Below are positions 8,257 to 28,234 of a stretch of 60,059 bases of DNA, in pieces (position 1 is the stretch's first letter; each line of letters opens with the position of its first letter). Source of the DNA: an uncultured Alphaproteobacteria bacterium (GTDB taxonomy: Bacteria > Pseudomonadota > Alphaproteobacteria > Methylaequorales > Methylaequoraceae). The position numbers and the translations under genes are program-made. The stretch spans positions 1 through 60,059 of the forward strand of contig CACAXP010000004.1 of NCBI GenBank assembly GCA_902536485.1. Reading direction: 5' to 3'. Below the pieces are notes generated by a model. It made no database searches. It saw only the letters and a list, made by a program, of their open reading frames with translations, and was not told the origin of the DNA.

Positions 8257-8272
8257 TGGCATTATTATTGCA
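8257..8272 (+). promoter_or_regulatory. sigma54 promoter of fliKLMN
   Basis: TGGCATTATTATTGCA, GG-N10-GC. Confidence 0.85.
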
Positions 8273-15283: not shown

Positions 15284-15483
15284 GCAATCCAATTTGTAAC
15301 GAATGCCAGCATTTTTACATTACCTATAAACCAAAATTCCCCTATGGTTGTAAGGCCTTTCAAGTTATTTCAAAAAAATTACCATATTTAGAAGTAAAGA
15401 ATATTTCTGGCATAAATTGTGCACTATTTTCAAAAAGAAATAAAAATGTTACTATTAAAGACAAAAAAGGAAGACTTGCATGA
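15280..15483 (+). CDS. small 4-Cys (putative metal-binding) protein
   Basis: CxxC-HFYITY...PYGC...SG-C pattern; ATGA-coupled on both sides. Confidence 0.8.
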   Translation: MSNPICNECQHFYITYKPKFPYGCKAFQVISKKLPYLEVKNISGINCALFSKRNKNVTIKDKKGRLA

Positions 15484-16205
15484 ATCAACAAGTTAACGCA
15501 ATGCAAGAAAGCATAAAGATAGCTTTGGACGCAGCAGACGCTGCGACCGATGTTACATCTGAATATAAAAGAATAAAAAATGAATATCTTAAAGCGGAGC
15601 AAAAGGTGAAAGAAATACACAAATACACGACCATTGTTTTTTCAAGTTCAATTGCGACAGCTATAATCGCCATAATACTGACTGGACTTCTTTATTTTAA
15701 ATCTTTATCTGAATTAGAAGAAATGACTAGTACAAGTAAAGAAGCACTTGTAGTTTTTGCTGAAAATGTTGAAAATGTCAACAAAGCAGTGGACGATATG
15801 AACTCTAGTCTTTCTAAACATACGGACTTAGTTAATGCTAATGAACAAATACAAATTGCCTTGGATAATCTTTCTAATGCAATTAAGTCTAATGATAAAA
15901 ACCTTATGGTTAATTTATCAAAAGAAATTTCAAACCTTTCCAATGGACTTTCTAAATCGATCAAAGAAGAGTCAGGTAAACTCGGAAAATCAATAGCTGA
16001 AAATAATGTAGTTACCTCGGCCAGTTTTAACAAAGAATTTAAAAAATTAATGCAAGAAAGTAAAAAAAATCAAAATACCAAACTTTTAAAAGAACTATCA
16101 AATAGTACATCCTCTTTAAACGCTGCTCTTGAGGCAATCTCAAGCCAAAATAAAATGCTTGTAAAGGAAATAAGAGACCAGAAGGAAAGCATTACTTTCC
16201 CATAG
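15480..16205 (+). CDS. single-TM coiled-coil protein
   Basis: N-terminal helix ALDAADAA, one TM, long heptad-rich C-terminus. Confidence 0.8.
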   Translation: MNQQVNAMQESIKIALDAADAATDVTSEYKRIKNEYLKAEQKVKEIHKYTTIVFSSSIATAIIAIILTGLLYFKSLSELEEMTSTSKEALVVFAENVENVNKAVDDMNSSLSKHTDLVNANEQIQIALDNLSNAIKSNDKNLMVNLSKEISNLSNGLSKSIKEESGKLGKSIAENNVVTSASFNKEFKKLMQESKKNQNTKLLKELSNSTSSLNAALEAISSQNKMLVKEIRDQKESITFP

Positions 16206-17040: not shown

Positions 17041-17640
17041 ATGGCAGAGCAATATTCAGTTCAAGCAGAAAATTTAATGAAAACTGCTGTTGAAGAATAC
17101 ATTGATGTACTTAAAGACATCAAAGCTACTGATGCAAATCTAGCTGTTATTAGAAACATCAGAATAAGTGTAAGCGGAAAACCCAGAAGATTAGTTGATG
17201 TGGCCGATCTTAGAAAAACTGATGACCCTCACCTTCTTGAACTCTTGGTTTTCAATACCGAACATATTGAGTTAATAGTAGAAAAAATTGATGAAACAGG
17301 TTTTAGTAATGAAGTGGATGGTCAATTTATTAGAATAAACGTACCTGATCCTTCTTATAAACAATTAATGGAAGTTGTTGATGATTTAAACAGAAAAAAA
17401 AATTCAGCAATGGGAAGATTAACTAAAGCAAAATCAGAAGCTACAAGTAGGGCAAGAACTGCTGTTGAAAATGAATTTATTGCTCAAGGAGTTGCTAGTG
17501 CTGCTTCAAAAAAATGTGAGGAATACTATGAAAATTATGGTAGTCAGATAAATGATTTAACTATGGAAAAAATTGAATCAATTCTTGGTGCAGAATATTT
17601 TGAAAAATATAAGACTGAAGAACTAGATTTTAATATTTAG
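17041..17640 (+). CDS. divergent ribosome recycling factor (RRF)-fold paralog
   Basis: Colinear by eye with RRF over about 180 aa, but RTGRA, YYG, TEERR and RNxRR motifs are lost; RBS AAGGA. Confidence 0.7.
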   Translation: [199 protein letters not shown]

Positions 17641-18487: not shown

Positions 18488-19666
18488 TCAGTAATTAATT
18501 TCAATTTCTATTCTTCTATTTTTTTCACGACCCTTAATGTCCTCGTTACTTGCAACAGGCTGCGTTTCTCCATAGCTTATAGCTTTCATTCTATCTGGTT
18601 TAAGTTTTCCTGAACTTGCTAATTCTTGAACAACTGATGATGATCTTGCAGCAGCTAAATCCCAGTTATCTCTATAAATGGATCCAAAGGTTAATGGTTT
18701 ATTGTCTGTATGACCTGAAACAAGTATTTCACTTCTACCTTTTTCATTAACCTCTGCAATTTTTGCCATTATTTTTTTTGCTTTACCTGTAAGATCAGCA
18801 GAACCAGATTTAAAAGCACCACCAGATCCAACTGTTATAATAACTTTGTCATCTTTTCTTTCTATATCTATCAAACCCTGACCAATTTCTTCCTTGAGAG
18901 CAACCTTAAATTTATCCTCAGCTAATTGAGCTTTTTTTTCTTCTTGCTTGGCAGTTTCTTCTGATTCACCGCTATTTGTTCCTTGCTGAGATTGAGCATC
19001 TCGTTTTCCTTTAGCTGCTGAAGCTGTAGCCAACATTGCGAGTTGTTTATCCATACCACCAATTAAAACTTCTGTTTCAGATTTACCTGAACCAGCTTTT
19101 GCTGATTCAACTGCATTCAATGTTTCCTGAAGAAGATTTGGAAGTTCTTTCTCGTCGGCTTCGGTAGGTGTGAAATTTACTACTACTTTATCTCCTAAGA
19201 CTTCAACATCAATGTCTCCTCTAGAAATTGCATCTTTTATATTTTCAGCTAATTCTTTAGCATCCTCATTTTCTCCATCATCCTTCGTGTTATCTTGTGT
19301 TTTTGTTTTTAACTCAACTTTTGGTTGATCTGTTTCTGTGGTTTGTTGTTTAAGGTTGTCTTGGACTGAGGGTGTTGGATTAGGACTGAAACTTAAAGAA
19401 AGAACTGTTGTTCCTTTAGGCTGTTCTACAACAGGCACCACTCTTTGTATTCCAAATGCGTTTTTCATACTTCCGCTAATTTGCTTAAACTTAGGAACGT
19501 TGAATTCAGCAAAGGAAAGAATCAGAACAAAAAAGGCCATTAAAAGAGTTGCCATATCAGCAAAAGTTGCCATCCATGCGGGGGCTCCTTTAGGAGGGCA
19601 TTCTTCACATTCATGCTCCTCTTCCTCAGTGGTTTCCTTTTTTTTTTCTTTAGCCTCTTCTGCCAT
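18488..19666 (-). CDS. motB: stator MotB/PomB
   Basis: CPPKGAPAWMATFADMATLL (conserved Asp); OmpA-like GHTDN, NWDLAAARS, NRRIEI; ATG 19666 preferred. Confidence 0.95.
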   Translation of the reverse strand: MAEEAKEKKKETTEEEEHECEECPPKGAPAWMATFADMATLLMAFFVLILSFAEFNVPKFKQISGSMKNAFGIQRVVPVVEQPKGTTVLSLSFSPNPTPSVQDNLKQQTTETDQPKVELKTKTQDNTKDDGENEDAKELAENIKDAISRGDIDVEVLGDKVVVNFTPTEADEKELPNLLQETLNAVESAKAGSGKSETEVLIGGMDKQLAMLATASAAKGKRDAQSQQGTNSGESEETAKQEEKKAQLAEDKFKVALKEEIGQGLIDIERKDDKVIITVGSGGAFKSGSADLTGKAKKIMAKIAEVNEKGRSEILVSGHTDNKPLTFGSIYRDNWDLAAARSSSVVQELASSGKLKPDRMKAISYGETQPVASNEDIKGREKNRRIEIEINY

Positions 19667-19679
19667 TTGTTTTAATTTC

Positions 19680-20450
19680 CTAGGTTGCGGCTGACTCAAT
19701 CAGTTTTTGTTTTTCTTTTGGAGGAAGATTTGCAACTAACTGATCTTGAATATTTCTTGGACTTTCGCCTCTAGAAATAAATTGCAAGCCTGTAATTATC
19801 ATTTCCCTATAGGTAGTCTCATAAGCAGAATATCCTTTTAATTTAATAACCAAAGGCATAAAAATTGTGTTGGCAATCATTGCACCATACAATGTAGTTA
19901 ATAGTGCAACGGCCATAGCTGGACCAATTGCTTTAGGATCAGCCATATTGCCCAACATTGCCACTAAACCAACAAGTGTCCCAATCATTCCCATTGCTGG
20001 AGCTATATCTACCCATGATTGACAAACACCAATATTTTTTTCGTGTCTGGTTTGCATAGATTTTAATTCTTTTTTTAGTTGAACTGTCAATTTTTCTTCA
20101 TCGGCTCCATCTACTAACATTTGAAGACCGCTATCAAAAAAAGCATCAGGAGTTTCTTGACCTTCCAAAGCCATCATACCATCTTTCCTTGCGATTCCTG
20201 CAAGTTCAACTATACGAGTTATTAATTCATCCATTTTTTTTACAGGTGGCTTGAATGCTTTGGCCATAGCTCCGTAAGCTCCAAAATATACTGGGAGTGG
20301 AGCTGTATACATAACAGCAAAAAACGAGCCACCAAAAACTATTAAAATTGACGGAACATCTATGTATGAACCTAAACCACCGGCTGATATCATCGCACCA
20401 GCGATCATTCCAAGAGTTCCCAAAAAACCTATTAAAGTTGCTAAATCCAT
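19680..20450 (-). CDS. motA: stator MotA/PomA
   Basis: APAMGMIGTLVGLVAML...DPKAIGPAMAVALLTTLYGA (PomA-like). Confidence 0.97.
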   Translation of the reverse strand: MDLATLIGFLGTLGMIAGAMISAGGLGSYIDVPSILIVFGGSFFAVMYTAPLPVYFGAYGAMAKAFKPPVKKMDELITRIVELAGIARKDGMMALEGQETPDAFFDSGLQMLVDGADEEKLTVQLKKELKSMQTRHEKNIGVCQSWVDIAPAMGMIGTLVGLVAMLGNMADPKAIGPAMAVALLTTLYGAMIANTIFMPLVIKLKGYSAYETTYREMIITGLQFISRGESPRNIQDQLVANLPPKEKQKLIESAAT

Positions 20451-20493
20451 TTATAATCCATTAACGTTTATATATATATATAAAATAATATTT

Positions 20494-20509
20494 TGGTATA
20501 GAAACTGCA
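20494..20509 (+). promoter_or_regulatory. putative sigma54 promoter of the DUF1566 gene (shares -12 GC with the motA promoter)
   Basis: TGGTATAGAAACTGCA, GG-N10-GC. Confidence 0.5.
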
Positions 20510-20521
20510 ACTTTAATACCA
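20506..20521 (-). promoter_or_regulatory. sigma54 promoter of motAB
   Basis: Minus strand TGGTATTAAAGTTGCA, GG-N10-GC. Confidence 0.8.
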
Positions 20522-20567
20522 AAATTGATTTTTTTTTTAAATTTAGGCAATATTGTTATATAAAATC

Positions 20568-21041
20568 ATGCAAATCATATTTTTTACAATACTTTTTAGT
20601 TTTTTTTCGTTGGGAAACTCAATTTCCTCTGATTTTATGGATAAAGGTTTTTATGTTATTGACCTAAAAAACAGAATTGAATGGCTCAAATGTACAACTG
20701 GTCAACAATGGAGCGATGAAAAACAGGATTGTTTAGGTGAACCTGTTAAACTTGATTTTGAGGAAATTACTCTTGCATTAGACATACTAAATCAGGAGAT
20801 TGAGGGTCCTTGGAGACTTCCCAGTAGAAAGGAACTCGAAAGCTTAGTTTGTAAAAACTGTGAGGGAGCAAAGATTGATTCGGTCCTATTTCCTCAAACC
20901 CCAGCTCAGCCTTTTTGGACATCTCAACGAAATTGGTGGTCACCTAAATTCTTTTGGTCTGTAAATTTTTTTACAGGTCATAGTTATGGACGTTTTGTTC
21001 CAGAAAAAAAGCTTTTCGTAAGATTCGTTAGAGATCGTTAA
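20568..21041 (+). CDS. secreted DUF1566 (Lcl C-terminal) domain protein
   Basis: Signal peptide, VIDLKNRIEWLKCTTGQ, WRLPSRKEL, FWTS, WSVNF, VRFVR. Confidence 0.9.
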   Translation: MQIIFFTILFSFFSLGNSISSDFMDKGFYVIDLKNRIEWLKCTTGQQWSDEKQDCLGEPVKLDFEEITLALDILNQEIEGPWRLPSRKELESLVCKNCEGAKIDSVLFPQTPAQPFWTSQRNWWSPKFFWSVNFFTGHSYGRFVPEKKLFVRFVRDR

Positions 21042-21238
21042 TTTTTAGATTTCATATATTCATATAATTTGTACAGAAAAAGAAGTAGTCCAAAAAAAAG
21101 TATAACAATTGCCGCATTCCATGATGTTACAAAGGAAAGATAATGTAACCTATCGTTTACAGTTAATGCCAAAATGATAATGAAAACAACTGCTACTAGG
21201 AAATATCTAATTATAGTGCATATTCTGCAATTTTTCAT
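21038..21238 (-). CDS. small 2-TM protein with N-terminal CxxC
   Basis: MKNCRICTIIRYF and two TMs; start overlaps the SPOR gene stop. Confidence 0.7.
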   Translation of the reverse strand: MKNCRICTIIRYFLVAVVFIIILALTVNDRLHYLSFVTSWNAAIVILFFGLLLFLYKLYEYMKSKN

Positions 21239-21843
21239 CGTTTTTTAAAAAGACAACTTATTTTAACTTCTTTAAGAAAGTTACAAACTTTTTTTGCATT
21301 ATCAAGATCATTTGTTTGAGAAATTAGTTTATAAAGTTTTTTTTTTTCATCAAAATCTATATTTACAAAAAAGTCTGGAAATTTTGTATTTATTTTTTTC
21401 ATAACAGAACTTTTTAAATCCTCAGCATTCTTCTTTTTTGAAAAAGCTCCAAATTGAATAAAGTAAATATCTTTTTTTTCTTCAGTAATTGGGATATTTA
21501 TATCTGTTTTCTTACTTTTTTTAGAATTAATTTCTATTTGGTTAGATTTTTCCAAAGGACCATTATTTTCACTTTCTTTTTCTTTTACTTCATTTGTGGA
21601 ATGTTTTTCCGTTTCTTTGGTATTTATTAAGTTTTCATTTACATCGACAAAATTTTGTTCCGTCTCTTTAACAATTTTTTTTTCTATATCCTCAGGATTT
21701 TGGTTATATTTTGTGATTTCCTCATTATCATTTTGAGTGATTTTTTCATTATCTGAAGGAAAATTACCCGTCAAATTTTTAACACCTAAAAAAATTAGGA
21801 AAAAAGATAAAGGAAAAATAATTAATGGTATTAATTTTATCAC
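21235..21843 (-). CDS. SPOR-domain (denuded peptidoglycan-binding) protein
   Basis: N-terminal TM, disordered linker, YFIQFGAFSKKKNA...AKKVC...LK...C. Confidence 0.88.
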   Translation of the reverse strand: MIKLIPLIIFPLSFFLIFLGVKNLTGNFPSDNEKITQNDNEEITKYNQNPEDIEKKIVKETEQNFVDVNENLINTKETEKHSTNEVKEKESENNGPLEKSNQIEINSKKSKKTDINIPITEEKKDIYFIQFGAFSKKKNAEDLKSSVMKKINTKFPDFFVNIDFDEKKKLYKLISQTNDLDNAKKVCNFLKEVKISCLFKKR

Positions 21844-21919
21844 AGTCTGATTTTATCTAATATGTCACAAATTTCTTTGGATTACAAAAAAAAATATAGT
21901 TATTATAGTTTTATGTATC

Positions 21920-21951
21920 GATGTCATGTTTCTGACATCAAAAAGATGTCA
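21920..21951. promoter_or_regulatory. perfect FleQ-type palindrome plus extra half-site upstream of rpoN
   Basis: GATGTCA-TGTTTC-TGACATC-AAAAA-GATGTCA. Confidence 0.55.
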
Positions 21952-22011
21952 AATTTAAATTTTGCATTCTTTTAAAAAAAGTTGTCAAATTACAATGAAA
22001 GGAGAATAAGA

Positions 22012-23463
22012 ATGCAAATATCTCAGAATTTAAAGTTGAAACAAAGTCAATCATTGGTGATGACACCTCAGCTTCAACAGGCAATAAAACTTCTTCAATT
22101 AAATAATTTAGAGCTTTCTAATTTAATTAATAAAGAATTAGAAGAAAATCCTTTCCTTGAAAATGAGTCGTCAGAGGAATTTAATGAAGTTTCAAATGAC
22201 AAAACAGAAGATTTGACTGAATCTTTTTCATCAGGGGAGTCCATTGCAGATGAACCTAAAAATGATTATGAAAATAGATGGGATACAGACTCTTTTCAAA
22301 CATACGAAAATAAAAATTCTAACTATGACTCTTTTGACCCTGGATCAGTTTTGGAACAAACTCTTTCAGAAAAAATATCCTTAAAATCTATTTTAAAAAG
22401 TCAGGCTCAATTAGAGTTTTCAGATGACAAAGAAAGGAAGATTTCTGAACTTTTAATTGACTACATTGAACCAAGTGGATGGTTATTGCAGTCTATTGAA
22501 GAATTAGAGTCTTTTAGTGGTTATGAAAAAGAGCAAATTGAGAGTGTATTACTTAGAATGCAAAAATTTGAACCTAGCGGGGTATTCGCCAGAAACTTAA
22601 AGGAATGCCTAATCCTGCAAATGGTAAATGAAGAAATTATGACTGAAAAAAATAAGATTATTATTGAGAACCTTGAAATGTTGGGTGAAGGTAATCTAAA
22701 AGAACTTCAAAAACTATGCTCAATGAAAGAAGAAGAATTAAAAGAAAGTATAAAAAAAATTAGACTATTAAATCCAAAACCAGGTTTAAAATACTCTGAT
22801 GAAAGCATAGATTTATTAAGTCCAGATGTAATTGTTACAAAAAATAAAAAAGATTGGTCAGTAGAGCTTAATAACAGTACTCTACCAAAAATTACAGTCA
22901 ATCAAGAATATGTTAATGAAATTGAGAGTTTAAAATGTTCAGATAATGATAAAAAGTTTATTTCTGAAAACATTAATTCAGCGAAATGGTTACTCAAAGC
23001 AATTGAACAAAGAAATATCACTACACTTAAAATTAGTTCAGAAATAGTAAATCAACAAAAAGAGTTTTTTGAAAAAGGTAAGAAGTTTTTAAAACCTATG
23101 ATTTTAAAAGATGTTGCAAACAAAATTGACATGCATGAAAGTACAGTTAGTAGAGTTACCTCTAATAAGCTAATACTTACACCTAGAGGAATCTATGAAA
23201 TGAAGATATTTTTTAGCGCTTCTATTAATAGTGTCACAGAAGGTGAAAGTCACTCCGCTGCATCGGTCAGAGAATCACTAAAAAAACTGATCAGCTGTGA
23301 GCCAATTAACAATCCACTTAGTGATGAGGCCATAGTAAGTAAACTTCAGCATGAGGGTATAAATTTGGCAAGAAGGACAGTTGCAAAATATAGAGAATTA
23401 CTAAATATTCCATCTTCATCAATTAGACGAAGAATGATGAAAATTCAAAATTTGAATATTTAA
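22012..23463 (+). CDS. rpoN: RNA polymerase sigma-54 factor
   Basis: QSQSLVMTPQLQQAIKLLQL, MHESTVSRV, RpoN box ARRTVAKYRE; ATG 22012 follows AAGGAG. Confidence 0.98.
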   Translation: MQISQNLKLKQSQSLVMTPQLQQAIKLLQLNNLELSNLINKELEENPFLENESSEEFNEVSNDKTEDLTESFSSGESIADEPKNDYENRWDTDSFQTYENKNSNYDSFDPGSVLEQTLSEKISLKSILKSQAQLEFSDDKERKISELLIDYIEPSGWLLQSIEELESFSGYEKEQIESVLLRMQKFEPSGVFARNLKECLILQMVNEEIMTEKNKIIIENLEMLGEGNLKELQKLCSMKEEELKESIKKIRLLNPKPGLKYSDESIDLLSPDVIVTKNKKDWSVELNNSTLPKITVNQEYVNEIESLKCSDNDKKFISENINSAKWLLKAIEQRNITTLKISSEIVNQQKEFFEKGKKFLKPMILKDVANKIDMHESTVSRVTSNKLILTPRGIYEMKIFFSASINSVTEGESHSAASVRESLKKLISCEPINNPLSDEAIVSKLQHEGINLARRTVAKYRELLNIPSSSIRRRMMKIQNLNI

Positions 23464-23567
23464 TATCAAGGAATTAAAAATAATATATTTTTAAAAAATT
23501 AATAATTTAAAAAAATTTTATAAGTTTAAATTAATAATTTAATGTAGAACATCTAGCTTTACAAAAG

Positions 23568-23747
23568 TTAGTTATATCTCACTCTTTTGAATTCACTTTC
23601 GAAAGATTCAAGGAAATGAATCATTGGAAAGGTTTCAGTTTTTTGAAGTTTATCATCTTTGTAATGAGATATTTTGATAAACATACTGTTACAATTTAAC
23701 TTTTCATCGACATTAACATTTTTTAAACCTTGTTTATTTAGATTCAT
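23568..23747 (-). CDS. 59-aa hypothetical microprotein (missed by the ORF track)
   Basis: MNLNKQGLKNVNVDEKLNCNSMFIKISHYKDDKLQKTETFPMIHFLESFESEFKRVRYN*; RBS AAGGAG and its own sigma54 promoter. Confidence 0.75.
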   Translation of the reverse strand: MNLNKQGLKNVNVDEKLNCNSMFIKISHYKDDKLQKTETFPMIHFLESFESEFKRVRYN

Positions 23748-23772
23748 TTTTTACTCCTTGTTAATTGTATTG

Positions 23773-23788
23773 TGCAAAATTCCTGCCA
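23773..23788 (-). promoter_or_regulatory. sigma54 promoter of the 59-aa ORF
   Basis: Minus strand TGGCAGGAATTTTGCA, near-consensus. Confidence 0.85.
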
Positions 23789-23791
23789 AAT

Positions 23792-24412
23792 TTAGCTTTC
23801 TAAATGATTTAATTGATTACTTAGCTCTCTTCTAAAAAATTCAATCTTTTCTTTAGTTCTTTTATTATCATTGATATGTAAAATAATTTTTTTCTGTCTT
23901 ATATCTGCCCAATAATTTTTTACTCTATTTAAATATTTCTCTTTCCTAGCTGGTACTGAAGAATGATAGCGAGAAATTGCCTCATTCCATCTTTTATACT
24001 TAATAAATAGTTTTTTTAAGAATTTAGCTGCATATTTTACATTAGAATCAGGATCAAGCATGTTCTCAAGGCTATCAAATTTATTCATGTGGTATTTGAT
24101 ACTTATTTGCATACACCCAACATCAATATTTTTATTTTTATAATTTTTTTTTAAAAAACTTAATACATCATCCTTATTGTCAAAAAACATTGGTTTTCCT
24201 GAAACATTTAAAGTCCAAGGCCATGAGACAAAATTGTTATTTTTCTTTATCCCTGACTCAACCAATGAAATTGATGTTAATAGTTTGTCTGGAATATTAA
24301 ATTGTTTACCGTATTTCTCTGTAAAGTTTAAACAATTAGTTAAGGAATTTGAATATGTTGGTTTGAAATTAATTAAAAGACATAATAAGAATAAATTTTT
24401 AAATATTTTCAT
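23792..24412 (-). CDS. sltF: lytic transglycosylase, SltF-like
   Basis: Signal peptide, ISLVESG (catalytic Glu), WPWTLNVSG, IDVGCMQI, AISRYHS. Confidence 0.8.
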   Translation of the reverse strand: MKIFKNLFLLCLLINFKPTYSNSLTNCLNFTEKYGKQFNIPDKLLTSISLVESGIKKNNNFVSWPWTLNVSGKPMFFDNKDDVLSFLKKNYKNKNIDVGCMQISIKYHMNKFDSLENMLDPDSNVKYAAKFLKKLFIKYKRWNEAISRYHSSVPARKEKYLNRVKNYWADIRQKKIILHINDNKRTKEKIEFFRRELSNQLNHLES

Positions 24413-24423
24413 AAAAGAATAAC

Positions 24424-24439
24424 AGCAATATTAATGCCA
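24424..24439 (-). promoter_or_regulatory. sigma54 promoter of sltF
   Basis: Minus strand TGGCATTAATATTGCT. Confidence 0.8.
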
Positions 24440-25768
24440 TTATCTTCTTAGTATCGAACTACTTATTAACTCTCTTCCAATTGAAATAAAGTTGTATGGG
24501 TTTACGGGTTTATCATTAACTTTTATTTCATAATGTAAATGTGCACCAACCGCTCTTCCTGTTGAACCCATTTTTCCAATTATATCTCCTTCACTAACTA
24601 AACTCCCTTTTTTTACCGCTAATTTGTGTAAGTGACCATAAATTGTTGAAACACCGTGCTTGTGTAAAATTTTAATTGATTTTCCAAACGAGCCATTTCT
24701 TCCAGCTGAAACAACTAATCCATCAGCAGGTGCCCTCACTTCTTCTTGCCAGGTCCCAGCCATATCAATCCCATAATGCATCTGTTTTAATTTAGTTTTG
24801 GGGTGAATCCTATAGCCATAAGGACTTGAAACATAGTAATATTGCATTGGTGGTTTAAGTGGAAGAAATACAATTGCGTTTTTTAATTCTTCAATAAACT
24901 GAAACCTTAAAGATGTGTGGTCGATTAATTCATCATTGTCTATAGTAAAACTTTCTACTCCAGGTTTTAAAAACGATTCAATTTCATTCAAATTAATTTC
25001 GTCAGGCTTAAGCCTTAATGACTTAAAAACGTTAACCAGTTGTAAAATTTCCTGATCTAACTTATTGGTAAAGTTAATAATTTTTAGCTTTTTTGTTCTT
25101 GGAGCTATGTAAGGCACAACTGGTAAGTTATTATATGAAAAAGAGGATCTTTTTTTATAAGGCTTAACATCCGGTTTGTTTTTACTTACAGTATGCTCCA
25201 TTGCAATCATTTCGGGACTAGCTAACCTTGAAAATTGATCAAAAACAACTTCATCAGAATGATTAATTTCATATTGAAAACTTTTTCCAAAATTTGAAAC
25301 AAGGTTCTTAATATTATTCAATTTTTCCTTTAATTTTATTTTTGTATCTATTTTATCCTCTGAAACTTTATAATCTAAGGATTGAAATTCAGTTATTATT
25401 TCATCAGTAACTTCAACATTTTCTTTATTGATTGCACTGTTCGCTATAGTTTTTAATGTTTGAATTTCTGATTCAGTAAATTTTTTATTAATTATTTCAT
25501 CGTTTTTATATGAAACATAACTGAAAAAGGAAGAAACTCCAAAGAATAATAATTGAACCATCTTAATTACAAAAACAACAGATAAAACAAAAGCAGATAT
25601 ATAATGCTTTAGGTTAAAAACGATTTCTATAGGTCCTTTTTTTGTAAAATATAAAAATCTTCTTTCTCTAAATATTTCTCTAAAATTATTTGAACTTACT
25701 GCAAGTCTTCCAAACTTTGGACTAGATTTAAAGTTTTGGTCTAGAAATCTCTTAATTAAATGTTGCAT
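24440..25768 (-). CDS. M23 endopeptidase, LmdC-like
   Basis: N-terminal FRERRFLYF (DUF5930-like), TM, coiled region, HYGID and HLH zinc motifs. Confidence 0.9.
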   Translation of the reverse strand: MQHLIKRFLDQNFKSSPKFGRLAVSSNNFREIFRERRFLYFTKKGPIEIVFNLKHYISAFVLSVVFVIKMVQLLFFGVSSFFSYVSYKNDEIINKKFTESEIQTLKTIANSAINKENVEVTDEIITEFQSLDYKVSEDKIDTKIKLKEKLNNIKNLVSNFGKSFQYEINHSDEVVFDQFSRLASPEMIAMEHTVSKNKPDVKPYKKRSSFSYNNLPVVPYIAPRTKKLKIINFTNKLDQEILQLVNVFKSLRLKPDEINLNEIESFLKPGVESFTIDNDELIDHTSLRFQFIEELKNAIVFLPLKPPMQYYYVSSPYGYRIHPKTKLKQMHYGIDMAGTWQEEVRAPADGLVVSAGRNGSFGKSIKILHKHGVSTIYGHLHKLAVKKGSLVSEGDIIGKMGSTGRAVGAHLHYEIKVNDKPVNPYNFISIGRELISSSILRR

Positions 25769-25774
25769 TTGTAA

Positions 25775-26275
25775 TTACTTTAGATACAAAACCACAACTA
25801 ACATAATATTAGTTAGCAATTGCATTAGCATAATTAAAAGCATTAATTTCCATGAAATAGGGTTACTTACATTTAAATTAAATTGAGGAAAGGGCTTATC
25901 CTCGTCCAGTCTTACATTTTTTTTATTGTCATCAACAATATGTTCATTTTGATAGTCTTTATATGTTTTTGTATTTGATGTACTGGTATTAGTATTCATA
26001 TTTGAAAAATTATATTCTTTTTTAAAATTTTCATTTTTAGATGTTTCAGGTTTTTTAAATAGGTTTACTTCACTTTTTGGAATTTGTGTTTTTTCTTCAT
26101 TAGCTGTTTTAACTATTTCAACAGCTTCCATTTTCTCAATTTTAATACTATTCTCTAGTGATTTTTTACTTTCTACTTGTTTTTTTTTTAAATTATTAGA
26201 AGAGTTAGAAGAACCAGTCATTTGAGTTCTCATTTTTTCAATTCTATCTCTTATGTCGATTACTTGTTCTGTCAT
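25775..26275 (-). CDS. tail-anchored hypothetical protein
   Basis: Polar disordered body with a single C-terminal TM. Confidence 0.75.
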   Translation of the reverse strand: MTEQVIDIRDRIEKMRTQMTGSSNSSNNLKKKQVESKKSLENSIKIEKMEAVEIVKTANEEKTQIPKSEVNLFKKPETSKNENFKKEYNFSNMNTNTSTSNTKTYKDYQNEHIVDDNKKNVRLDEDKPFPQFNLNVSNPISWKLMLLIMLMQLLTNIMLVVVLYLK

Positions 26276-26309
26276 TATTTAATTGTAATTTTGAATGTAT
26301 GTTATTTTA

Positions 26310-26325
26310 TGCATTTCATGAGCCA
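26310..26325 (-). promoter_or_regulatory. sigma54 promoter of the tail-anchored protein/M23 operon
   Basis: Minus strand TGGCTCATGAAATGCA, GG-N10-GC. Confidence 0.65.
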
Positions 26326-26398
26326 ATTATAAAATTTTAGTACTTTTTTTTTAAATATTTTTGTGATAAGCATTATAAGTCTTTAAAATTTTTAAGCA

Positions 26399-26797
26399 AT
26401 GTTTTCTAGAGATTCAGATAAAACAAATAAAGTTAGCACTTCTTCAAGCGTTATAGGCGTAGAAATGCAAATAAATGGCAATATAAAATGTAGCGGTAAC
26501 TTAGTTCTCAAAGGTAAGGTTAAAGGTAACATTGAATGCGATCACATTAGCATATCATCTGAGGGGTTTCTTAAAGGTAACATAAAATCTCTCAACACCA
26601 CCATTGGTGGGGATTTTGAAGGTGATGTTTTTGCTGATACCCTTGCAATTGAATCTACTGCAAAAATTAAAGGAAACTTACACTATAATAATTTGAAAGC
26701 TCAAGGTGGTGCAACTCTCGACGTTCAGTTAATTAAAGGCCTAGACAATGAAATTAAAGATAAGCCCCCAAAACAAAAAAAAAATAAGAAAGGTTAA
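26399..26797 (+). CDS. bactofilin 1 (with MFSR membrane-targeting N-terminus)
   Basis: SVIG...INGNI...GKVKGNI...GDV...LAIESTAKIKGNLHY beta-helix repeats. Confidence 0.93.
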   Translation: MFSRDSDKTNKVSTSSSVIGVEMQINGNIKCSGNLVLKGKVKGNIECDHISISSEGFLKGNIKSLNTTIGGDFEGDVFADTLAIESTAKIKGNLHYNNLKAQGGATLDVQLIKGLDNEIKDKPPKQKKNKKG

Positions 26798-26800
26798 ATC

Positions 26801-27181
26801 ATGGCGGATAATCAATCCATAATAGGTAGGGGAGCAATATTTAAAGGTAAAATTTCTAACGCATCGACGATTGAGATAAATGGAAGAGTGGATGCAGATA
26901 TTAAATCTGATAAAGTCACTTTAGGAAAAAATGCTACTCTTGAAGGTTCAATTACGTCAGAACTTGTTGTTATCTCAGGTAACTATCAAGGAAAGATAAA
27001 GGCAGATTCTGTGTGGCTTACTGATAGCTCTGTGATTACTGGAGAGATAAACTATAAATCTTTACAAATGGACAGAGGTGCCGCATTAAATTGTAAAATT
27101 ATCCATAATTGGGATGAAAGAAAATTAAAGGGTAAAAAAGCTGAGGGGATAGACAACGAAACTATCGAAGAAGACAACTAG
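26801..27181 (+). CDS. bactofilin 2
   Basis: SIIGRGAIFKGKI...INGRV...ITGEINYKSLQMDRGA. Confidence 0.93.
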   Translation: MADNQSIIGRGAIFKGKISNASTIEINGRVDADIKSDKVTLGKNATLEGSITSELVVISGNYQGKIKADSVWLTDSSVITGEINYKSLQMDRGAALNCKIIHNWDERKLKGKKAEGIDNETIEEDN

Positions 27182-27202
27182 AAATTAATTTGGAGAATAT
27201 AA

Positions 27203-27517
27203 TTGAGTGATATTACCTACATAAATAAAGACCTTTTAATGGAAGGAACATTAGAATCAAAGGAGGGTCAAGTTATAATTGCTGGAACTTTTAAAGGAAA
27301 TGTAACAGCTAAGTCATTAATAATTGAAAATACATGTAAGTTTCACGGAAATATAAACTCCGAACATGTTCGTGTAGAAGGAAATGTTATGGGTGATATC
27401 ACTGCTGATCACTTGGAGGTATCAAATAGCGGGAACGTAGATGGTAAGCTTAAAACTAATTCACTCTCAGTTGATTCTGGAGCACAAATATCTGGTAATG
27501 TATCAAGAATCGCTTAG
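27203..27517 (+). CDS. bactofilin 3
   Basis: TYINKD...GTFKGNV...VEGNVMGDI...LSVDSGAQISG. Confidence 0.9.
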   Translation: MSDITYINKDLLMEGTLESKEGQVIIAGTFKGNVTAKSLIIENTCKFHGNINSEHVRVEGNVMGDITADHLEVSNSGNVDGKLKTNSLSVDSGAQISGNVSRIA

Positions 27518-27769
27518 TCTTTTATCACCCGACTTCTTTTGAGTTTCAACACAATTTTTAAAAAAGTCCATTGCCTTTTCTTCACCATCAATTTTTTGAA
27601 GATTCATTGCAGAAAATCTTCCTGCGGCTAATGAGACAGCCCATAAATCTTTTTTGTTTAGAGCATAATTAAATAACAGAGATTCTATCTCATCCCTAAT
27701 TTTTATATATTTATTTTTCTTATAATTTATATTATTTGGAAACTTAATTATATTATGATTTTTTAACAT
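27503..27769 (-). CDS. hypothetical protein, 88 aa
   Basis: NIIKFP N-terminus, helical LWAVSLAAGRFSAM core; sigma28-like promoter upstream. Confidence 0.7.
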   Translation of the reverse strand: MLKNHNIIKFPNNINYKKNKYIKIRDEIESLLFNYALNKKDLWAVSLAAGRFSAMNLQKIDGEEKAMDFFKNCVETQKKSGDKRLSDS

Positions 27770-27847: not shown

Positions 27848-28234
27848 ATGACAAAAAAAACAACAAAGAATCTCCCTGTTAAAGCAAAATCTACAGAGTT
27901 AATTACTGTTAACCAGGAAAAAATTAGTCCATTAGATATAACTCAGAAACTTCACCATTTGAAGAGCAGAGCAGATGTAAGAAAATATTTACCCGACATA
28001 CTTGGAAGAGTGCTCGCCAGAATATGGATAGATGCAGGATTCAAAGAAGAGTTTGCAAAGGATCCACAGAAAACGCTCGAATTTAACGGTGTTTATTTAC
28101 CAGAGGATATGTCTATTGAATTTCAAAAGCCGAATTCCGACAGACCAAGAATTGTTGTTTACGAGCAAAGACCGAACTCCAAATTTAAACTAAGGGTTTT
28201 ATATTTACAATTAGTAATGATGGCTGGCAGGTGA
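27848..28234 (+). CDS. NHLP-leader/nitrile-hydratase-alpha-like protein without Cys or core peptide
   Basis: RVLARIWIDAGFKEEFAKDPQKTL...GVYLPEDMSIEF resembles the NHLP leader pattern (AKAWxDxxFKxxLxxxP...GxxLP). Confidence 0.65.
   Translation: MTKKTTKNLPVKAKSTELITVNQEKISPLDITQKLHHLKSRADVRKYLPDILGRVLARIWIDAGFKEEFAKDPQKTLEFNGVYLPEDMSIEFQKPNSDRPRIVVYEQRPNSKFKLRVLYLQLVMMAGR

Follow-up and report, generated by a model that had tools for sequence, protein, structure and literature searches.

We analysed a 60,059-nucleotide (nt) stretch of DNA, here called the window, which is a whole 60-kb contig of a draft alphaproteobacterial genome (1.02 Mb, 62% complete, 29% GC), and concentrated on a cluster of cell-wall and cytoskeleton genes that stands next to rpoN, the gene for sigma-54. 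Coordinates are positions within the window unless a contig or locus label (such as G000 or L069) is given. The cluster encodes three bactofilins, a peptidase of the M23 family, a small SLT-domain enzyme, a 59-residue microprotein and a protein of 166 residues (TA166), listed here with the adjoining SPOR, rpoN and stator genes (ORF, open reading frame; aa, amino acids).

18488-20450, - strand: motB and motA
21235-21843, - strand: SPOR-domain protein (Pfam SPOR, E 1.2e-6)
21982-23463, + strand: rpoN (Pfam AID, CBD and DBD Sigma54 domains, E 1e-17 to 1e-61)
23568-23747, - strand: microprotein (59-aa micro-ORF, no Pfam family)
23792-24412, - strand: small SLT protein (Pfam SLT, E 4.7e-10)
24440-25768, - strand: M23 protein (Pfam M23, E 1.8e-30)
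25775-26275, - strand: TA166 (166 aa, no Pfam family, hydrophobic stretch at the extreme C-terminus)
26399-26797, + strand: bactofilin 1, Bac1 (Pfam E 5e-21)
26801-27181, + strand: bactofilin 2, Bac2 (Pfam E 1.3e-21)
27203-27517, + strand: bactofilin 3, Bac3 (Pfam E 4.3e-23)

An earlier reading of this DNA, made from its letters alone (the sequence-only reading), had named these genes, motA and motB apart, and Pfam matches and ORFs confirm each of them in its place. It had also described three tandem bactofilin genes divergent from the TA166–M23 operon, which is what we find here, in 16 further loci of the same family and in 11 outgroup loci. The bactofilins score 75.2, 77.1 and 81.8 bits (Bac1, Bac2 and Bac3) against a cut-off of 27.9 for Pfam PF04519. 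A single Sigma54_DBD domain per genome in five of five genomes makes rpoN a single-copy gene; its true start may be the ATG at 22012.

Three genes of the cluster are preceded by a sigma-54-type promoter motif, defined as TGGC-N8-TGC, with GG and GC 10 nt apart (GG-N10-GC), pointing at the nearby start codon.

26311-26325, - strand: TGGCTCATGAAATGC, 36 nt before TA166, predicted transcription start near 26299
24425-24439, - strand: TGGCATTAATATTGC, about 12-13 nt before the SLT ATG
23774-23788, - strand: TGGCAGGAATTTTGC, 27 nt before the micro-ORF, predicted transcription start near 23762

The micro-ORF additionally has an AAGGAG ribosome-binding site. All three of the -24/-12 motifs that the sequence-only reading had proposed, before the tail-anchored protein/M23 operon, the SLT gene and the microprotein gene, were found. 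The window contains nine TGGC-N8-TGC matches in all, where 100 shuffles averaged 1.40 and one of them reached nine. Across the genome the pattern has 59 matches, 15 of them in the approximately 7% of sequence that is non-coding on a simple ORF map, and 13 of these 15 lie no more than 100 nt upstream of a co-oriented ORF. The ORFs behind the genome-wide motifs include flhA, fliS, flagellin, flgF/G, fliK, an LPP20 lipoprotein, a borderline rod protein and amtB, as well as two glycosyltransferases and a DegT aminotransferase. Because the motif stands before mostly flagellar genes and amtB, it appears to mark mainly the flagellar regulon, together with at least one classical nitrogen gene.

Conservation and turnover of the promoter motifs

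Among the genomes available, the family makes up its entire order, with 42 genomes from 14 genera. We took 16 loci from 11 further genera, which with the window make 17 family loci, of which some scans used 15 or 16. Full-length M23 orthologues occur throughout this family. All 17 loci have GG-N10-GC in front of TA166, and all 17 have it in front of the SLT gene as well; tblastn finds the micro-ORF in 11 of the 17 (and it is kept in 7 of 11 outgroup loci), and in those 11 the motif before it is always present. With one locus per genus, top-base frequencies in the motif core and in its flanks are 0.86 and 0.65 for TA166, 0.83 and 0.56 for SLT, and 0.89 and 0.60 for the micro-ORF. The sequence-only reading had staked its proposal on conservation of these motifs, and they are indeed preserved while their flanks vary. 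On the stator side of rpoN, a sigma-54-type motif precedes motA in all 15 family loci scanned, and the one facing the neighbouring Lcl_C gene is retained in 10 of 15.

The outgroup consists of 11 loci (L069 and L122-L131; GC 30-48%) from three further alphaproteobacterial clades, which with the family makes four. In all 11, the cluster runs motB-motA, Lcl_C, (tm66), rpoN, (micro-ORF), (unk88), M23-TA and three bactofilins. Synteny had been suggested as a check by the sequence-only reading, and the linkage of rpoN and motAB to the bactofilin–M23 genes does recur in four clades; judged by this shared gene order, the link is ancient. Sigma-54-type motifs accompany it in the outgroup before Bac1 (9 of 10 loci), TA (5 of 11), the micro-ORF (7 of 7), the SLT gene (4 of 4) and motA (11 of 11).

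The position of the motifs has shifted among these clades. L069 and L122-L125 carry a near-consensus TGGCAYAATCGTTGCA 139-140 nt before Bac1, pointing at the bactofilin operon, and none was found before TA in these loci. L126-L128 and L130 carry two back-to-back motifs, TTGGTATGAATGATGCAATTAACTTGCCA, directed toward TA-M23 and toward Bac1 and having one GC in common, and L131 has a motif before TA. In one clade, the SLT gene is located after the third bactofilin. The association between motif and module has been kept through this turnover of promoters, which suggests that it is old and which would be hard to explain unless it were functional.

The SPOR gene does not follow this pattern. GG-N10-GC is found upstream of it in none of 15 family loci, and SPOR has no match in 10 outgroup loci, so that it belongs to the cluster only in this family. 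We therefore rejected SPOR as part of the sigma-54 module, in which the sequence-only reading had included it.

To grade the sites, we built a position weight matrix (PWM) from nine flagellar sites, which themselves score 19.7-25.2 bits. The SLT site scores 15.7 bits, the micro-ORF site 14.2 and the TA166 site less than 12; all three thus fall short of the core flagellar promoters, which counts against their use. It is conceivable that the GG-N10-GC sequences are silent sigma-54 sites or sites of another protein, and that transcription of the genes begins at sigma-70 promoters. The weak TA166 score would fit such an account, as would the widespread non-productive binding of sigma-54 described for E. 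coli (PMC4591121) and the position of the SLT motif, which leaves no space for a leader or ribosome-binding site. Against it stand the exact 10-nt spacing in all loci, the correct orientation and distance to the start codons, the occurrence of the same motif before flagellar genes and the fact that the SLT motif was relocated along with its gene in another clade with its 12-nt spacing kept. We regard silent sites as very improbable. The 18 RNA sequencing runs that we located each contained at most 0.20 of the sampled words.

Two further observations concern these promoters. A top-scoring motif (25.2 bits) belongs to the flagellin gene (G000:C8:22888-24462, identical to L004:2889-4463), and FliA (sigma-28) is above cut-off in four of four near-complete relatives despite this sigma-54 motif. 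Between the TA166 motif and Bac1, at 26340-26375, lies a conserved block, TTTTTGTGATAAGCATTATAA (+ strand), followed by A-tracts; it may be a sigma-70 promoter of the bactofilin operon or an enhancer and bend for the TA166 promoter. In the five family loci with a sigma-54 motif before Bac1, that motif sits downstream of the block.

The M23 protein, its candidate partners and the SLT enzyme

The AlphaFold2 (AF2) model of the M23 protein, with secondary structure assigned by DSSP, begins with a helix (residues 2-12) and a hairpin of two strands (36-42 and 45-51), continues with a transmembrane (TM) helix (53-94) and periplasmic helices that extend to residue 300, and ends in the M23 domain (312-437; Pfam match at 329-424). 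The hairpin sequence, ERRFLYFTKKGPIEIVFN, is invariant in the family and recognizable in all outgroup clades. Residues E35, R36, R37, F38, L39, F41, T42, K43, G45, P46, I47, E48, V50, F51 and N52 are identical in 12 sequences, and the pattern ERRFLxFxKxGPxE is kept in nine outgroup M23 sequences. Both catalytic motifs (HxxxD and HxH) are intact, with H331, D335, H379, H381, H410 and H412 invariant. As modelled, the protein has the architecture of LmdC, including its cytoplasmic beta-hairpin, and the sequence-only reading's description of an LmdC-like M23 protein agrees with both this layout and the catalytic residues. Outside the related clades, matches to the protein are restricted to the M23 domain. 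Its gene lies near the bactofilin genes, with TA166 as the one gene between, in the window and in the 16 family and 11 outgroup loci.

This arrangement recalls the BacA-LmdC system of Hyphomonas neptunium and Rhodospirillum rubrum, in which a bactofilin gene likewise lies near the gene for a bitopic M23 protein whose short cytoplasmic tail carries a hairpin and is followed by a TM helix, helices in the periplasm and, at the C-terminus, the catalytic M23 domain (PMC10945521). In R. rubrum, the hairpin residues R25-H26-L27 of LmdC are needed for BacA binding, and the first strand is similarly basic and hydrophobic here, where the corresponding residues are R36-R37-F38-L39 (PMC10945521). What differs here is the presence of three tandem bactofilins, a tail-anchored protein and sigma-54-type promoters, and the placement of the cluster between rpoN and motAB.

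Within NCBIfam, the M23 domain is matched best by Pgp3 (E 8e-23) and Pgp6 (E 3.6e-22), and both scores fall far short of the respective cut-offs. CcmA with Csd1/Csd2 in Helicobacter pylori, and Pgp3 in Campylobacter jejuni, are cases in which bactofilins and M23 peptidases shape the cells of polar flagellates; only the catalytic domain matches these proteins, whereas the N-terminal architecture differs here. We know of no sigma-54 control of the CcmA, Csd or Pgp3 genes, a point at which no search was aimed.

The three bactofilins are not equivalent. Bac1 starts with MFSRDSDK (M1, F2, a basic residue 4 and K8), of which MFSR/K is invariant in the 17 loci, and it ends in a basic C-terminal tail; the MFSR start is close to the bactofilin membrane-targeting consensus, MFSKKKK (PMC12448750), and is a membrane-targeting-like motif as judged from this resemblance. 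Neither Bac2 nor Bac3 has an MFSR-type N-terminus. Bac2 is the best conserved of the three (68-98% identity across family loci) and has an acidic C-terminal tail, and Bac3 consists of the core domain only.

TA166 is encoded by the first gene of the M23 operon, 6 nt from the M23 start in the window and overlapping it as TAATG in L069. In alignments, the helix at its N-terminus, M-x-E-Q-V-I-D-I-R-D-R-I-E-K-M-R, is invariant, the linker that follows varies, and the TM segment with which the protein ends is nearly invariant. It was found in 30 of 42 family genomes and in 5 of 301 evenly sampled genomes of the class; it belongs to no Pfam or NCBIfam family, and its Atlas matches are all clusters of 'hypothetical protein'. 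A complex prediction of TA166 with M23 residues 1-110 scored 0.00 against a mark of 0.32 and counts neither way.

A third component has been described in the LmdC-Baf-Api system of Pseudomonas aeruginosa, which resembles the present one in combining LmdC, a bactofilin and a small membrane protein of no family, and in being tied to a motility organelle, there type IV pili; Api is thought to control LmdC (bioRxiv 10.64898/2026.10.09.758143). Api has a short cytoplasmic part, an N-terminal TM segment, a periplasmic helix and a beta-sandwich, whereas TA166 has the opposite topology, with a cytoplasmic N-terminus and a TM segment at the extreme C-terminus (bioRxiv 10.64898/2026.10.09.758143). On these grounds of topology we rejected TA166 as an Api-like protein. 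Most, but not all, LmdC proteins carry a Gly-Gly autoprocessing site in the periplasmic linker (bioRxiv 10.64898/2026.10.09.758143); no such conserved site is seen in the M23 alignment here, which has no invariant G-G pair at residues 95-300. The systems also differ in regulation, that of P. aeruginosa being under cAMP-Vfr, with no mention of RpoN in that text (bioRxiv 10.64898/2026.10.09.758143).

The microprotein has no match in Pfam, NCBIfam or Atlas, and Foldseek against the PDB returned nothing at E 0.001 or better. In its AF2 model, the N-terminus is disordered, and residues 23-41 form a beta-hairpin that is predicted with confidence. The turn of this hairpin is acidic and that of the LmdC hairpin is basic, so that the two are of opposite charge.

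The SLT protein scores 39.5 bits against a Pfam cut-off of 21.3. Its catalytic glutamate, E52 (in VESG), is invariant in 10 sequences, and its N-terminus (MKIFKNLFLLCLLINFKPTYS), a candidate signal peptide, is hydrophobic in all orthologues as judged from the sequence. Searches against the PDB gave no match at E 0.01 or better with the single protein, and with a profile the best was EtgA, a type III secretion enzyme, at a non-significant E of 0.085. FlgJ, by comparison, appears in five of five genomes as a rod-binding domain in open frames of 100-107 aa that contain no lytic domain. Three of the four near-complete relatives have only two SLT-domain genes, for a Slt of approximately 650 aa and for this SLT of approximately 210 aa; in the fourth, G008, the domain search gave only the large Slt, and the small orthologue was seen by tblastn. 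Given a single-domain FlgJ and only two SLT genes, the small SLT is the obvious candidate for the flagellar lytic transglycosylase.

A small SLT enzyme alongside a FlgJ that is only a rod cap is also found in the Fla1 system of Rhodobacter sphaeroides with its FleQ/FleT/RpoN2 hierarchy, which shares with the present one sigma-54 flagellar promoters, an rpoN among the flagellar genes and motAB in the hierarchy (PMC7277832). There, SltF is Sec-exported and encoded in the flgG operon (PMC7277832), whereas the SLT gene here lies outside that operon, adjoining M23 in the family and following the bactofilins in another clade. The name SltF given by the sequence-only reading fits the SLT domain and a FlgJ without lytic domain, but the gene is outside the rod operon; the protein is likely to be an SltF-type flagellar lytic transglycosylase.

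The SLT promoter motif lies unusually close to its gene. Among 11 genus representatives, the distance from the -12 GC to the ATG is 12 nt in nine and 11 nt in the other two, and motif and 12-nt spacing recur in outgroup loci L122-L124 (three of four loci), where the gene has been relocated. With this spacing, the SLT transcript should start at or next to the start codon. A near-start class, with the sigma-54 GC 11-13 nt before the start codon, comprises SLT, fliK, the DegT aminotransferase, a GT11 glycosyltransferase and one unknown gene (motifs at 24425-24439, 8257-8271, G000:C23:5059-5073, G000:C1:5057-5071 and G000:C42:924-938). Such positions, taken as promoters, imply leaderless or near-leaderless sigma-54 transcripts.

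Proposed coupling to flagellar assembly and competing explanations

A flagellar cluster fills the left third of the window and begins with two divergent genes for sigma-54 activators, only the first of which has a helix-turn-helix (HTH) domain.

3-1073, - strand: sigma-54 activator, FleQ-like (AAA+ and HTH_8 domains)
1246-2397, + strand: sigma-54 activator, FleT-like (AAA+ to residue 367 of 383, no HTH)

The HTH-less gene has a TGGTAA-N5-TTGCT motif approximately 30 nt upstream and heads the fliE operon; it is followed in order by fliE, F, G, H, I, a 134-aa ORF, fliK, L, M, N, a FliO-like ORF, fliP, Q, R and flhB. FleT is likewise a protein without a DNA-binding domain. The pair is arranged like fleQ/fleT of R. 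sphaeroides, where fleT is the first gene of the fleT-fliEFGHIJ operon beside fleQ and where FleQ and FleT jointly activate the later flagellar genes, motAB among them (PMC7277832). Each of the four near-complete relatives has only four sigma-54 activators: two are encoded next to fliE, and the others are an NtrC-like and an NtrX-like protein whose genes lie approximately 3 kb apart.

Provided that the promoters are used, flagellar activators probably fire them. This preference follows from the flagellar character of most sigma-54 motifs in the genome, from the place of the module between rpoN and motAB, the latter with its own motif, and from the flagellar need that the SLT enzyme meets. A palindrome, GTCA-N6-TGAC, which resembles the FleQ box of Pseudomonas, lies near some flagellar genes. 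One copy, GTCATGTTTCTGAC, lies at 21923-21936 between SPOR and rpoN. The genome holds nine copies (7.6 expected), four of them intergenic, and three of the intergenic ones are located between fleQ and fleT (1092-1105, approximately 100 nt upstream of fleT's promoter motif), within the leader of flhA (G000:C3:61163-61176) and, as stated, beside rpoN. This last copy recurs in 15 of the 16 family loci scanned and in none of the 11 outgroup loci.

Taking these results together, the explanation that we lean towards is a bactofilin-guided peptidoglycan remodelling system of the BacA-LmdC kind that is wired to sigma-54 and made in step with flagellar assembly. The three bactofilins would form a membrane-bound polymer, to which Bac1 would supply the membrane-targeting N-terminus, and this polymer would dock the cytoplasmic beta-hairpin of the bitopic, catalytically intact M23 endopeptidase, so that wall cleavage would be confined to one place. 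TA166, which is lineage-specific and appears translationally coupled to the M23 gene, would probably be a third subunit. The TA166–M23 operon, the SLT gene and the microprotein gene would each be expressed from a sigma-54 promoter of its own, the SLT enzyme being the likely hole-cutter for a flagellum whose FlgJ has no lytic domain. FleQ-like and FleT-like proteins, the latter without a DNA-binding domain, would fire these promoters, and local wall remodelling would be timed with flagellar assembly, its site lying either at the flagellar pole or somewhere along the cell body.

Several observations weigh against this explanation. In this genome, no sigma-54 motif precedes the bactofilin operon, and a motif directly before Bac1 occurs in only 5 of 17 family loci (three genera), which do not include the window's genus. 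Synteny within the family says little by itself, because the 17-kb stretch from an RRF-like gene to the phosphoenolpyruvate (PEP) carboxylase gene is collinear throughout, unrelated genes such as those for PEP carboxylase and a K channel included. Nor is a phyletic contrast possible. Flagella were detected in 37 of 42 family genomes, with all misses in genomes of 68-80% completeness; the five genomes without an M23 orthologue also have no rpoN or bactofilins, which suggests that the region is unassembled in them, and all family genomes with the region assembled have both flagella and module. The M23 model has a mean predicted local distance difference test (pLDDT) score of 60, and its hairpin, at 47-50, is of low confidence. 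A count of 7-mers over 19 promoter-upstream regions, intended to reveal enhancers, found nothing common to more than three regions, and GTCA-N6-TGAC is absent near the TA166, SLT and micro-ORF promoters even with one mismatch allowed. Finally, the TA166 -12 region (AAATGCAT, ATGCAT) resembles the -12 region of amtB (TCATGCAT), and an NtrC-like activator is present in the relatives.

The last of these points would also suit promoters that are real but fired by NtrC, with the module changing cell shape when nitrogen is limiting, for instance by altering the surface-to-volume ratio, and the flagellar neighbourhood being historical. NtrC-like and NtrX-like activators occur in four of four near-complete relatives, a single rpoN serves both regulons, and the three promoters have no flagellar-type upstream site that we could find. 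Among the intergenic motifs of this 62%-complete genome, however, only that of amtB is clearly nitrogen-related, whereas at least seven precede flagellar genes; the cluster lies beside motAB and rpoN in four clades, the adjoining SLT gene fits a flagellar need where FlgJ is single-domain, and inspection of the upstream regions by eye revealed no NtrC-type palindrome. We consider control by NtrC unlikely. The sequence-only reading's central proposal, a morphogenetic bactofilin–M23 system under flagellar sigma-54 control, is supported in part: it is strengthened by conserved motifs and four-clade linkage and weakened by the missing motif before the bactofilins of this genome, and its flagellar activator is one that we infer.

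A different division of labour would make the M23 protein, TA166 and the bactofilins dedicated parts of flagellar assembly or of the motor, that is, a cytoplasmic basal-body scaffold with a wall-cutting or stator-anchoring enzyme, rather than a shape module. The constant linkage to motAB, rpoN and SLT in four clades, the sigma-54 motifs and the finding of TA166 only in these flagellated lineages (5 of 301 genomes sampled from the class) would all be expected of such parts. There is also a precedent in Bacillus subtilis, where the bactofilins BacE and BacF are required for hook and filament assembly (PMC4627819). They resemble the present proteins in being functionally tied to flagellar assembly (PMC4627819), but they have no M23 partner and no sigma-54, and they operate in a Gram-positive bacterium with peritrichous flagella. 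The LmdC architecture and hairpin, on the other hand, match proteins that act in morphogenesis (PMC10945521), rod penetration is already covered by SLT, and no sequence feature ties TA166 or the bactofilins to a flagellar protein. Dedicated flagellar parts thus seem rather improbable, although this account overlaps with remodelling in step with flagellar assembly and differs from it only in the site and purpose of action.

The bactofilin-LmdC kind of system is known, and its recognition here is based on architecture and gene linkage. Four features appear to be new: the wiring to sigma-54, the unvarying association with rpoN, motAB and an SltF-like enzyme, the candidate partner that is tail-anchored, and the microprotein. 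The regulatory link is conserved and unexpected, and it is read from promoter motifs. Our literature search (bactofilin with RpoN, and with flagellar and sigma54), outside which most subscription journals lay, found no account of sigma-54 wiring of bactofilin genes. The one regulatory link that we found in print for a bactofilin–M23 module is cAMP-Vfr in Pseudomonas (bioRxiv 10.64898/2026.10.09.758143). Bactofilin–M23 modules are known as shape determinants, and when cells deploy them is largely open; in the present case, a timing signal can be read across four clades, in the form of sigma-54-type promoters beside the only rpoN and the stator genes. If flagellar activators fire these promoters, wall remodelling and motility would be co-programmed in abundant streamlined marine bacteria, which would offer a testable case of motility-coupled morphogenesis with two new candidate partners, TA166 and the microprotein.

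Paired promoters and neighbouring genes

The PWM scan detected a pair of back-to-back promoters between the motA and Lcl_C genes.

20491-20524: back-to-back sigma-54-type promoters for motA (-) and Lcl_C (+)

The two have one palindromic -12 GC (20507-20508) in common, with TGGTAT -24 boxes 24 bp apart, so that polymerase could bind in one orientation or the other but not in both at once. The same paired design stands before TA-M23 and Bac1 in L126-L128 and L130, and one literature search found nothing like sigma-54 promoters that share a -12 element. Both the paired promoters and the leaderless-type promoters bear on sigma-54 mechanics.

These pairs invite a more far-reaching version of the explanation given above, in which cell-wall morphogenesis would be a tier of the flagellar programme. 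A single sigma-54 and FleQ/FleT-type activators would time the bactofilin-LmdC-TA166 system, the SLT enzyme (from a leaderless transcript) and the microprotein. As part of this version, the shared -12 pairs would work as a switch that permits expression of either the enzyme operon or the scaffold operon, and the microprotein would tune the docking of LmdC on the bactofilin polymer. As a whole, we hold it to be speculative and doubtful.

Three small genes accompany the cluster.

20553-21041: Lcl_C (DUF1566) small protein, hydrophobic N-terminus
21038-21238, - strand: tm66, a 66-aa membrane protein, 3' of the SPOR gene
27503-27769, - strand: unk88, an 88-aa protein of no family

The Lcl_C gene lies between motA and rpoN in all four clades and has a sigma-54-type motif in most family loci; its product could be a periplasmic motor-associated protein. 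tm66 accompanies the cluster in most clades; tblastn matches to it were obtained in 9 of 11 outgroup loci, with none in L129 and only query residues 4-43 matched in L126. unk88 is part of the cluster in all clades, but its place varies: here it follows Bac3, and elsewhere it stands between M23 and the micro-ORF.

Further genes adjoin the stator, flhB and bactofilin genes. A divergent RRF-like gene (17041-17640; Pfam RRF, E 4.9e-13, and below the frr cut-off of NCBIfam by a wide margin) adjoins the motA-motB-unk280 operon and is found next to motB in outgroup loci L126-L128 and L130 as well. Just after flhB, a 241-aa ORF of no family (15480-16205) has a strong sigma-54 motif (15408-15422; PWM 22.5 bits) and is probably an unrecognized flagellar gene. 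Next to the bactofilins, a 128-aa ORF (27848-28234) has a weak match to an NHLP leader peptide (TIGR03793, E 1.8e-7, under cut-off) and is kept in the family at 65-99% identity.

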